Part shown: one piece after another, positions 8,283 through 10,840 of the stretch
Position numbering within the stretch: the first letter of the stretch is position 1
How the letters are laid out: each line of letters starts with the position of its first letter
Source: a virus
Taxonomy: Duplodnaviria; Caudoviricetes
IMG/VR virus record: IMGVR_UViG_3300031994_000022
Direction: 5' to 3' (one strand)
DNA length: 64,000 nucleotides
The notes under the pieces: model-generated
What the model was told of the DNA's origin: nothing
The model's database searches: none
What the model saw: the letters and a program-made list of their open reading frames with translations, nothing else
Made by a program: the position numbers and the translations under genes

Positions 8283-8341
8283 AGGAGGAAATGAGGTTTG
8301 TCCGGACAACAAAATGCGCATTTACTCCTGAAAAAAATTGA
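8283..8341 (+). promoter_or_regulatory. RBS-sequestering leader hairpin / uORF upstream of the methyltransferase
   Basis: AGGAGGAAATG pairs with CATTTACTCCT; 16-codon uORF 8291-8341 whose TGA overlaps the MTase TTG start. Confidence 0.5.
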
Positions 8342-9246
8342 ATCAAAACAAAAATATATTAAAAGTAGTGACATGTTTTACAGGTATAGGCATGCAAGAA
8401 CGTGGAATTGAGAATACCGGGTTATTTGATATGGAAGTGATAAATACTTGTGAAATGGATACGGATGCTATTATTTCATATGCTGCTATTCATCACAATT
8501 TAACAAAAGAAGATGTGATGAATTACGCCGAGTATCCATCTCGGGAAGAAATGGCGCAACAATTATCAAATAAACATATTGGTTATGATTTTGTAAAAGA
8601 TAAACCATATGATTGGGGAAAACTTGCAAGAAGTAAAGATAGCAAGATGAGACTTCAAACTGCTTGGTTAGCAGATAAGCTTAATAAAAATGTTGGTGAT
8701 ATCTGTAGAGTAGAAAGTTTTCCACAGTGTGATTTATTAACTTTTAGCTTTCCTTGCACCGATCTTTCAATTGCTGGTCGTCAAGCTGGAATGGTAGAAG
8801 GTGAAACTCGTAGTGGTCTCGTATATGAAGTTCTCCGTATACTCAAGAATATGGAAGCTGAAGATAATCTTCCAACATATCTTCTGATGGAGAATGTAGA
8901 CGCTCTTGTAAATAAAAAGAATAAACCACAGTATGAAGCACTTAATGAAGAATTTGCTGACTTAGGTTATGACGTAAAATGGCAAGTCCTTAATGGTAAA
9001 AATTGTGGTGTACCGCAAAATCGATCTAGAATTTTTGCTATTTATTGGCTTAGAGATAAGGTTGATTTATCTAATTTTGAGTTTCCAAAGCCATTTGATG
9101 ATGGTCGTAGACTTAAAGATATATTGATGGATGAAGTCGATGAAAAATATTACATAACTAACGAAAGAGCACAAGCCTTAATTAGAGATTTAGTTATGAA
9201 TGATAAAGTATTGCCAACCGAAGAAACTGTAAAAAAAAACAAATAG
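8338..9246 (+). CDS. C5-cytosine DNA methyltransferase, N-terminal catalytic part (motifs I-VIII)
   Basis: FTGIG (I), GDI, FSFPCTDLS.AG (IV), ENV (VI), PQNRSRIF (VIII); motifs IX-X absent from this ORF. Confidence 0.92.
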   Translation: MNQNKNILKVVTCFTGIGMQERGIENTGLFDMEVINTCEMDTDAIISYAAIHHNLTKEDVMNYAEYPSREEMAQQLSNKHIGYDFVKDKPYDWGKLARSKDSKMRLQTAWLADKLNKNVGDICRVESFPQCDLLTFSFPCTDLSIAGRQAGMVEGETRSGLVYEVLRILKNMEAEDNLPTYLLMENVDALVNKKNKPQYEALNEEFADLGYDVKWQVLNGKNCGVPQNRSRIFAIYWLRDKVDLSNFEFPKPFDDGRRLKDILMDEVDEKYYITNERAQALIRDLVMNDKVLPTEETVKKNK

Positions 9247-9374
9247 GATGTGATCTTACATTTCGAGGTTCAAGAATTATGGAGATTACTTCATGCGTCA
9301 CTTCAAGGTATGATGCCGGGATATGCAAACATCTTATGGAAAGAACAGGAGTATGTGAAATTAATAATGGATAA
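9231..9374 (+). CDS. TRD-like module in the -1 frame behind an A9 run
   Basis: KKKQIGCDLTFRGSRIMEITSCVTSRYDAGICKHLMERTGVCEINNG; no upstream start in its own frame. Confidence 0.55.
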   Translation, partial: KKKQIGCDLTFRGSRIMEITSCVTSRYDAGICKHLMERTGVCEINNG

Positions 9375-9561
9375 AACCAATAGAATATTAGTTATAGGTA
9401 TTTTACGAGCAGTTAACACTGAGAGCAAACATATACATCTTGAAGATTATGTTTACTCTGAGCTAGGATTAGCACCCACATTAACTGCCAGGGATTATAA
9501 AGACCCTAGAAGAATATTAATTAATGAGGATAATCATGTTAGATGTAATGAGATTAGGTAG
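9367..9561 (+). CDS. MTase variable-region (TRD-like) mini-ORF
   Basis: VIG...VYSELGLAPTLTARDYKDPRRILI. Confidence 0.7.
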   Translation: MDKTNRILVIGILRAVNTESKHIHLEDYVYSELGLAPTLTARDYKDPRRILINEDNHVRCNEIR

Positions 9562-9727
9562 TATTTTTGGTCACACTGGTGGCAGTTTTGCTGGACTGGT
9601 TTATCATCCGGAAGGACTTTCACCAACAATAAATACTGCACAAGGTGGTTTAAGAATGCCGTTAATAATTGAGGAACAAAATGGAAGAAATAAAGATAAA
9701 ACAAGCAACCAAACAAGGTTGGATTGA
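9536..9727 (+). CDS. MTase variable-region (TRD-like) mini-ORF
   Basis: LGSIFG...GLVYHPEGLSPTINTAQGGLRMPLIIE; GAGG RBS. Confidence 0.7.
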   Translation: MLDVMRLGSIFGHTGGSFAGLVYHPEGLSPTINTAQGGLRMPLIIEEQNGRNKDKTSNQTRLD

Positions 9728-10115
9728 AATGGTATCGGGGGGGGTAGCGGATCTTAGTTTTCCTACTAGTAAAACAAGAAGAGGTCGAGTTGAAGAAAAA
9801 GGTAATATTGCCCCAACCATAACCACAACAGGAGGATTATATAAAATGGATTACGATAAAGAAGAATTTATAAAAAAGCTTAGGATAAGAAAGCTTATAC
9901 CTGAAGAATGCTTTATTCTTATGGGTATGACTGCTGAAGATTGTATTAAATGTAGAGAACTAGGAGTAAGTAATTCTCAACTTTATAAACAAGCTGGGAA
10001 TGGACTTATAACTAACTGTGTGCAGTTAATAATGGAACATCTCCGTAAAGCAACGAAAGATAGTGATTATATAACTTTAGATGAAAAGATGATAAACAAT
10101 GGATATGGAATTTAA
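9681..10115 (+). CDS. C5-MTase C-terminal part (one TRD-like unit + motifs IX-X)
   Basis: KQATKQG...SKTRRGRV...APTITT; RIRKLIPEECFILMG (IX), QLYKQAGNG (X); GAGGA RBS. Confidence 0.88.
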   Translation: MEEIKIKQATKQGWIEMVSGGVADLSFPTSKTRRGRVEEKGNIAPTITTTGGLYKMDYDKEEFIKKLRIRKLIPEECFILMGMTAEDCIKCRELGVSNSQLYKQAGNGLITNCVQLIMEHLRKATKDSDYITLDEKMINNGYGI

Positions 10116-10162
10116 GCCTCAACCTGTTGGTGGTGATTATGTTTCAATGATAGCGGAGATTT

Positions 10163-10411
10163 ATGATGAATACACACAAAATAATTAAAGTTGGTAACTG
10201 TTCTACTGGAAATTCTGAAGGCGGAATGGTTTATTCCCCAGAGGGAATATCTCAAATTATAACTGCAGGAACACATGGCTATGGAATGGGGAATATCATT
10301 ATTAACGATCGCGGTTTTGTAAATAAATCACCTCAAATATCATACGGAATATGTCCCACACTACGTGCGGAAAATCATGGTAATTTACCGAAGGTGATAG
10401 TAAATGAGTAA
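10163..10411 (+). CDS. Double TRD-like mini-ORF
   Basis: GMVYSPEGISQIITAGTHG...GICPTLRAENHGNLPKVIV. Confidence 0.7.
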   Translation: MMNTHKIIKVGNCSTGNSEGGMVYSPEGISQIITAGTHGYGMGNIIINDRGFVNKSPQISYGICPTLRAENHGNLPKVIVNE

Positions 10412-10559
10412 TGAAATAATAATTTTAGGTAACTATATGAAAAGCAATCATGATGCAAGTCGCATAGTTGACGTGAGAGGGGTGGCTCCTTGTGTTAAAG
10501 AAAATCATGGAACCGTAACGGCTGTAGTAGTAGAGGAGAATGATAAAAATGATAATTGA
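10404..10559 (+). CDS. TRD-like mini-ORF (absent from ORF track)
   Basis: MSNEIIILGNYMKSNHDASRIVDVRGVAPCVKENHGTVTAVVVEENDKNDN; AAGGTG RBS. Confidence 0.65.
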   Translation: MSNEIIILGNYMKSNHDASRIVDVRGVAPCVKENHGTVTAVVVEENDKNDN

Positions 10560-10722
10560 TATCTTATATGCCAATAGATCCCCCAGGATATATAAAGACT
10601 ATTCTCCAACTATACGAAGTGAAAGGATTGGTTTGTTAGTAATAAATGAAAATATTCAAATGTCTAAGATACCAAAGAACAGAATATGCGAAGAAGATTC
10701 GCAAGCAGTACGAAGCTCATGA
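10540..10722 (+). CDS. TRD-like mini-ORF
   Basis: LYANRSPRIYKDYSPTIRSERIGLLVI; GAGGAG RBS. Confidence 0.65.
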   Translation: MIKMIIDILYANRSPRIYKDYSPTIRSERIGLLVINENIQMSKIPKNRICEEDSQAVRSS

Positions 10723-10840
10723 AATAGAAGAACGCCGTTGTAATATGCGTGAGTACGGATTAAGAAACGATGGTTGCTGCAATACAATTACTGGCGTATT
10801 GAAAGATAACTACATATTAGTAATAGATGATGAAATTTGA
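10646..10840 (+). CDS. TRD-like mini-ORF
   Basis: RTEYAKKIRKQYE...RNDGCCNTITGVLKDNYILVI. Confidence 0.65.
   Translation: MKIFKCLRYQRTEYAKKIRKQYEAHEIEERRCNMREYGLRNDGCCNTITGVLKDNYILVIDDEI

Follow-up and report, generated by a model that had tools for sequence, protein, structure and literature searches.

A phage cytosine C5-methyltransferase locus that appears to be taken apart into two core chains and separately encoded recognition modules

Introduction

How might a cytosine C5 DNA methyltransferase (C5-MTase) recognize its targets when its catalytic motifs and its target recognition domains (TRDs) are spread over a row of separate genes? This question is raised by a locus in the tailed-phage record IMGVR_UViG_3300031994_000022, of which a stretch of 64,000 nucleotides (nt), here called the window, was analysed. 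At 8338-10840 on the plus strand, the locus contains an open reading frame (ORF) with motifs I-VIII (the N-part), another with motifs IX-X (the C-part) and about nine units of 45-65 amino acids (aa). Mini-genes of this family are currently annotated as hypothetical proteins. Our analysis suggests that the locus is a multispecific phage C5-MTase taken apart into separately translated chains, and we put the probability of the full model at about 0.6.

Results

The catalytic core is divided between two genes

An initial annotation of the sequence had proposed that the core is split over two ORFs. This was borne out by the PF00145 profile, which matched 8338-9246 with its positions 43-209 (E 1e-42) and 9669-10115 with its positions 236-322 (E 4e-5). 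The core features are as follows.

8338..9246, plus strand: N-part gene, 302 aa; motifs I-VIII and a helical stretch after motif VIII; stop codon TAG at 9244-9246
9681..10115, plus strand: C-part gene, 144 aa; one TRD fused to motifs IX-X; contains a run of eight G (the G8 tract, 9737-9744); matched by PF00145
9846..10115, plus strand: predicted short C-part, an internal cistron of 89 aa with motifs IX-X only; AGGAGG at 9830-9835 precedes ATG 9846

The N-part contains C5-MTase motifs I (FxGxG), IV (PC), VI (ENV) and VIII (QxRxR), and residues G16, G18, P139, C140, E185, N186, V187, Q227, R229 and R231 were invariant in 26 homologues. Ten loci from independent assemblies (L002-L011), with N-parts 62-90% identical, were fetched for comparison. 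Motifs IX and X (GN) of the C-part were represented by R14, K15, L16, E20, G50, N51 and G52, conserved in 10 C-parts. The ratio of nonsynonymous to synonymous substitution rates (dN/dS) was 0.11 for the N-part and 0.18 for the C-part. In the ten loci, the MTase motifs and the TRD do not come together in one polypeptide but are distributed over at least three kinds of chain. By sequence, the closest solved relatives of the family are M.MpeI (4dkj) and then M.HhaI.

The ORF at 9681-10115 had been described as encoding motifs IX-X. It does carry them, but it also includes one fused TRD, which is 59-64% identical to in-chain units of the proteins P0156, P0202 and P0116, and an internal start at 9846. 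The Shine-Dalgarno (SD) duplex at ATG 9846 was estimated at -10.3 kcal/mol, and the same start and SD were found in all nine relatives. Because this start matches those of the relatives' short C-parts, the TRD-less 89-aa C-part is probably also made. Judged from these signals, the gene probably yields two products, a fused TRD-C and a short C-part.

The small ORFs encode TRD modules with their own starts

The small ORFs of the locus had no match in Pfam or PHROGs. A TRD-unit profile built from the units of L006 detected 50 units across the 10 loci. Except for the stub at 10099, the window units are 33-72% identical to units inside proteins of at least 380 aa. An alignment of 33 units showed a common scaffold: it opens with a strand containing Gly, continues with a V-Y strand and the G-x-x-P-T-L core, and closes with a hydrophobic strand, and the loops vary. 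Together with the purifying selection described below, these matches agree with the proposal that the small ORFs are TRD-like. The mini-genes of the window are listed here.

9367..9561, plus strand: TRD mini-gene G1, 64 aa; own ATG and SD; orthologues in seven loci, dN/dS 0.19
9536..9727, plus strand: TRD mini-gene G3, 63 aa; orthologues in L004 and L007, dN/dS 0.06; alternative ATG at 9524
10099..10188, plus strand: deletion remnant of a TRD mini-gene, 29 aa; N-terminus matches L003 5775, L008 5600 and L011 6358
10163..10411, plus strand: 82-aa mini-gene with a full TRD (G6) and a second, partial TRD; profile matches at 10172-10303 and 10340-10402
10404..10559, plus strand: TRD mini-gene G8, 51 aa; profile match; orthologue in L004, dN/dS 0.12
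10549..10722, plus strand: TRD mini-gene of another type, 57 aa; homologue at L006 6992-7159; alternative ATG at 10540
10646..10840, plus strand: TRD mini-gene G7, 64 aa, last of the array; orthologues in six loci, dN/dS 0.11

Orthologous mini-genes were compared at dS 0.6-2.0 and gave dN/dS values of 0.03-0.19, the lowest for 10163-10411 (0.03, orthologues in L003 and L008). The suggested comparison of dN/dS and cassette order across related phages thus gave low ratios and a conserved layout. An ATG lies 0-8 codons ahead of the first strand in 33 of the 36 full units. The median SD duplex was -6.1 kcal/mol at unit ATGs versus -2.4 kcal/mol at all ATGs, and duplexes of -4 kcal/mol or stronger were found for 86% of the units versus 25% of all ATGs; at G3, for example, GAGGA lies 5 nt upstream of ATG 9536. 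These values agree with the earlier assignment of a ribosome-binding site to most mini-genes. Similarity to in-chain units was seen for the G8 mini-gene (72% identical to a unit of P0191), the product of 10549-10722 (52-65%; P0202, P0214 and P0160) and G7 (57-60%; P0224 and P0168). It is very probable that the mini-genes encode conserved, separately initiated TRD mini-proteins.

Some details of the first description changed. The ORF at 10163 does give two profile matches, as had been noted, but its second TRD is partial. A TRD unit is present in the mini-gene placed at 10540, whose ATG is now taken as 10549 with 10540 as the alternative. The suspicion that 10099-10188 is degenerate was right: the remainder of this unit was lost, it is full-length in L003, L008 and L011, and it has no in-chain counterpart. 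The long ORF at 9250-9561 was judged spurious in its part upstream of 9367, since this frame has stops in relatives. Read-through of the N-part TAG into this in-frame ORF was rejected for the same stops and because long ORFs stay uninterrupted when read with the standard code. Elsewhere in the window, ORFs as long as 2028 aa are intact, and the fragmentation is therefore local to the MTase locus.

A longer unit type of 130-150 aa was also observed (L003:6107-6559, L006:6586-6999 and L009:5890-6282). It has a helix-turn-helix-like stretch before the P-T-L core and no Pfam or PHROG match.

The divided layout is conserved among relatives

A homology search found 553 homologues of the N-part. Nearly all of the best ~95, with 55-90% identity, are 283-301 aa long, i.e. 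N-parts alone. All ten fetched loci have a DnaG primase gene upstream and a gene for the DNA polymerase III alpha subunit (PolIII-alpha) downstream, and between them an N-part of ~300 aa, a row of ORFs of 47-90 aa each, the C-part and further small ORFs. The presence of this layout in every fetched relative indicates that it is due neither to chance nor to assembly error. The initial annotation had argued against frameshift decay of a single gene, and the conserved breaks, with units on both sides of motif X, support that argument: five window units lie downstream of motif X, and the TRDs are not in frame between motifs VIII and IX.

The C-part is 87-98 aa long in seven of nine relatives (L003, L004, L005, L007, L008, L009 and L011). 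It begins just before motif IX, so that no TRD lies inside. L004 and L005 have no TRD attached to either core chain while all catalytic motifs are kept; recognition in these two phages must therefore come from the small proteins. In L005 the gene order is N-part, C-part and then units.

Single chains appeared among more distant relatives (P0100, P0103, P0108, P0110, P0115, P0116 and P0118; 51-55% identity), which contain 1-4 of the same units in frame. The divided form is thus derived from, or sister to, the classical multispecific enzymes. Other linkage states were found as well, with a TRD joined to the N-part (P0040, P0120) or TRDs joined to the C-part (P0121, P0126, P0155), and some proteins of 92-177 aa consist of TRDs only (P0154, P0230, P0246, P0179).

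Other genes and domains were seen at these loci. A 589-aa intein/LAGLIDADG-bearing gene (L007:2224-3993) lies directly upstream of the N-part. N-part homologues of 389-510 aa with intein/Hint domains (PF14890, PF07591, PF13403) are P0016, P0045-P0048, P0055, P0058, P0069, P0088-P0091, P0099, P0104 and P0105; their query coverage of ~50% suggests insertion mid-domain. A DNA-methyltransferase-like gene of 216-217 aa (phrog_757, E 4e-25; weak PF00145) was found at L008:3349-3999, L009:3347-4000 and L010:3350-4000, where it abuts the N-part start; the window has no such gene. L005:5262-5684 encodes 140 aa with two recognition units and then a zinc-ribbon-like tail (Cys-x2-Cys ... Cys-x2-Cys), and a small zinc-ribbon-like ORF follows the array in L004 (2813-3040).

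A free TRD peptide is predicted to fold on its own and to resemble a segment of M.HhaI

The free 64-aa G1 peptide was modelled with AlphaFold2 (AF2), giving a three-stranded module with pLDDT 80.9 and pTM 0.62, so that G1 is predicted to fold autonomously. The best Protein Data Bank (PDB) matches to the model were all M.HhaI. Residues 1-54 of G1 superposed on M.HhaI 220-269, the segment bearing both recognition loops, with a root-mean-square deviation of 2.5 Å over 47 residues and 26% identity. Foldseek returned no significant E-value for the 64-aa model; what can be used is the consistent ranking of M.HhaI and the residue range. In the model, the placement on M.HhaI is exact although the score is weak for this length.

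An A9 run probably joins TRD0 to the N-part

The unit at 9231 had been listed as a separate ORF. This had to be revised, because the unit has no start codon and is a -1 frame extension of the N-part, predicted to be entered at a run of nine A.

9231..9239, plus strand: A9 run with heptamer A_AAA_AAA (9231-9237); putative recoding site from the N-part to TRD0; sole A/T run of at least 9 in 64 kb
9231..9374, plus strand: TRD0, a start-less unit in the -1 frame of the N-part; predicted N-TRD0 fusion of ~345 aa

The run sits three codons ahead of the N-part TAG stop, and TRD0 has no start codon ahead of its conserved N-terminal third. Exactly A9, followed by a start-less -1 ORF of ~45 codons overlapping the TAG, was found in the window, L002/L003, L007, L008 and L009; the run was kept in these five diverged lineages although dS exceeds 1. 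The dN/dS of TRD0 was 0.06 in the -1 frame versus 1.1 in the N-part frame. Moreover, the 12 codons from the A9 run to the first in-frame ATG showed 51 synonymous versus 22 nonsynonymous codon differences. The TRD0-type module also occurs as a free ORF with ATG in L011 and as an in-frame N-part fusion in P0120, P0080 and P0094. From this pattern, an N-TRD0 protein (~345 aa) is predicted as a second product next to the N-part of 302 aa.

No conserved stimulatory RNA structure was found 3' of A9 (consensus fold -6 kcal/mol, 0 compensatory pairs), and polymerase slippage therefore fits at least as well as ribosomal -1 frameshifting. Such a structure is not required for polymerase slippage on A9.

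In L007, an HNH homing-endonuclease gene (phrog_953, E 2e-46; L007:5027-5713) lies between TRD0 and the next unit.

Tract lengths and cassettes vary between strains

Contigs from public runs were placed on the locus to compare strains. In X3, an independent sample with no other difference over 8303-9296, A10 replaces A9, so that N-part and TRD0 are fused in frame. The G8 tract is the only G/C run of at least 7 in 64 kb. At its position G9 was found in X3 and in the goat sample X6, and G8 in the RNA-library run X4; with G9 the fused TRD-C frame would end early and leave the short C-part alone. L006 has no run at the homologous position.

Cassette gain and loss, as had been suggested, was seen between relatives and also between near-identical strains, which lose or replace cassettes with 10407 joined to 10636, 9362 to 9496 with 290 other letters, and 10523 to 10676. 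Comparison with L004 showed that the C-fused unit was cleanly removed between two short repeats, which lie where cistrons start. Shufflon-like recombination switching was considered and rejected, as repeats flanking the cassettes were not found.

Occurrence of the phage and of the family

The window is phage-like, has 34% G+C and is part of a ~142 kb contig. Its PolIII-alpha is ~40% identical to those of Geobacillus virus E3, Lactococcus 949-group phages and Psychrobacillus phage Perkons. The stretch was found in sheep, goat and bovine gut metagenomes from ten studies, and the host environment of the phage is the ruminant gut. Megablast of the window against isolate phages gave no match, a scan of viral contigs for the locus gave a single, distant one, and tblastn of the C-part against isolate phages gave ordinary single-chain MTases and nothing else. 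Searching 1.84 billion proteins with a profile returned 3810 matches, which include single-chain proteins bearing as many as seven units and numerous others made of units only or of units plus a C-part. These many chain forms indicate that the phenomenon is broad; the clade of the window phage alone contains more than 90 N-part clusters.

Discussion

A model of the locus and the evidence that limits it

In the model that we favor, the N-part would provide the AdoMet-binding and catalytic motifs I-VIII and the short C-part motifs IX-X, the two forming a catalytic body as in M.AquI. Each of the ~nine mini-genes would produce one 45-65 aa recognition module equivalent to M.HhaI 220-269. The working form would most likely be a non-covalent complex of N-part, C-part and TRD, in which the peptide takes the place of the variable region of a single-chain enzyme and completes the small domain. 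Each peptide would add a further target sequence for the shared core, and many targets would protect the phage DNA against several host restriction systems. A one-base slip of RNA polymerase or the ribosome on A9 would attach TRD0 to the N-part, and one further module would be fused to the C-part, depending on the length of the G8 tract. Free, fused and tandem modules all occur, as do phages without a TRD in the core chains, and the simplest reading is that the modules work attached or free. From these patterns we infer that the chains assemble in trans, that every module has a specificity of its own and that the system acts against restriction. Precedents are the two-chain enzymes M.AquI and M.EcoHK31I and the complementing fragments of M.SssI split in the proximal variable region (PMC3404938).

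A related reading, for which we consider the odds even, is that of a Type I-like C5-MTase with a constant two-chain core, exchangeable non-covalent specificity subunits of ~50 aa and a fast-evolving cassette array, in which the A9 and G8 tracts set the tethering.

Several points weigh against the favored model. Binding of free TRDs to the core and a resulting change of its specificity are again what we infer, and the mini-gene products look expressed by their ATG and SD signals and by selection, which are properties of the sequence. Contigs from X4, a sheep-gut RNA library, covered parts of the N-part, G3, the C-part gene, G6 and the last units at 99% identity or higher, but they carry no strand, transcription or slippage information, leave 9220-9523 uncovered and are no proof of expression. 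The match between G1 and M.HhaI is statistically weak (Z 3.1, Foldseek E about 5), as expected at 64 residues. The window has two covalently linked TRDs, and free peptides are therefore not strictly required there for some activity. Furthermore, in experiments on M.SssI complementation was poor when the enzyme was split in the distal variable region (PMC3404938); three-piece assembly is thus not trivially to be expected.

Alternative explanations

The presence of both linked forms in the window invites the view that only these, N-TRD0 made by A9 slippage and TRD-C, are active, and that the free mini-genes are a reservoir activated by recombination or tract change. Tract lengths and cassette content indeed vary between strains, and in relatives a given module type can be found both fused and free. 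However, silent cassettes need no ATG and SD, yet 33 of 36 units have their own, and protein-level purifying selection as strong as that on the core is hard to maintain on unexpressed DNA. L004 and L005, with no linked TRD but intact catalytic motifs, do not fit this view either, and there are no repeats flanking the cassettes to guide recombination. We regard it as unlikely, though the best placed of the alternatives. Slightly less likely still is that the mini-proteins are made for another role: they might restrain or time methylation by competing for the core, or bind DNA or host enzymes. They look selected and expressed. Against such roles, the same modules are in-chain TRDs of single-chain relatives, variable loops on a conserved scaffold are typical of recognition modules, and core chains without a TRD would then have no means of DNA recognition.

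The frame steps themselves raise the possibility that serial +1 ribosomal frameshifts at the overlaps join the units into a polyprotein, i.e. a classical single-chain enzyme, since a +1 step occurs at 58 of 64 overlapping junctions. This bias is near the compositional expectation, as 81% of out-of-frame ATGs in this phage are in the +1 frame (binomial P 0.03), an excess that arises because Asn, Asp, His and Tyr codons ending in AT often precede G. Duplication of a unit with its overlapping end then propagates the +1 step, and the regularity is mostly compositional. The junctions share an SD and an ATG rather than a shift-prone motif, the overlaps range from 4 to 77 nt and several neighbours do not overlap, the C-part of L005 lies ahead of the units, and at least four serial shifts would leave almost no full-length product. 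With compositional bias at work and junctions that are initiation sites, serial frameshifting was rejected as the meaning of the frame steps and is quite improbable. The lowest probability of all goes to a decaying multispecific MTase pseudogene or an assembly artefact. Some remnants exist, namely 10099-10188 and a half unit in L005, but the same breaks recur across many samples and studies that were assembled independently, every piece has a dN/dS far below 1 when read in its own frame, start codons are kept, and other long genes of the window are intact.

Possible significance

If the favored model of a disassembled multispecific MTase is right and free TRDs of ~50 aa program a shared core, large phages could match many restriction systems at little coding cost. 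The locus would then represent a new evolutionary route for specificity modules, in which every cassette brings its own start and can come or go with all reading frames left unbroken. It would also be a naturally occurring set of minimal DNA-recognition modules that can be exchanged for targeted methylation. It would also answer how one core uses many TRDs in multispecific enzymes, which were described in the 1980s-90s and for which, to our knowledge, this structural question is still open. If the Type I-like reading is true, this would be the first DNA methyltransferase of its class with free TRD subunits, and these would be the smallest known autonomous sequence-recognition modules.

Comparison with known systems

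In Type I systems (HsdM/HsdS), the specificity of the methylase comes from a separate subunit, and the genes are shuffled or phase-varied. The likeness to the window is an analogy of logic only, because fold, chemistry (N6-adenine) and TRD architecture are unrelated and there is no homology.

The A9 run resembles known recoding sites, such as the A_AAA_AAG -1 frameshift of E. coli dnaX and the transcriptional slippage of Thermus thermophilus dnaX and Shigella spa13 (PMC5009743). As in these cases, an A-run at the end of the zero-frame ORF would give a second, C-terminally different product from one gene. In contrast to them, the alternative product of the window would acquire a DNA-recognition module, and tract length also varies in the DNA; unlike in dnaX-type frameshifting, no stimulatory RNA structure was found at A9.

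The closest counterparts are other C5-MTases. Multispecific MTases of temperate Bacillus phages combine one core with several short (~40-50 aa), independent tandem TRDs; they include inactive 'pseudo-domains' and serve phage self-protection. Examples are M.SPRI, M.Phi3TI, M.Rho11sI and M.H2I (Trautner et al., 1996, EMBO J 15:1434, as cited in PMC12707154). The window family is like this SPR/Phi3T type in having several TRDs of ~40-50 aa with a conserved scaffold and a T-L-type core, and its single-chain members have 3-7 in-frame units. However, the SPR/Phi3T type holds all TRDs in one polypeptide between motifs VIII and IX, whereas the window has one cistron per TRD, with units also downstream of motif X and the core itself in two.

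M.AquI and M.EcoHK31I are natural two-chain C5-MTases, assembled from the products of separate genes (PMC3404938). Like M.AquI, the window encodes motifs I-VIII and IX-X separately. M.AquI is split within the variable region, and in both enzymes the TRD is shared between the two chains; in the window, by contrast, the TRD would be an additional, exchangeable chain that exists in many versions. Searches of the literature returned work on multispecific, split and circularly permuted C5-MTases and nothing on free TRD genes.

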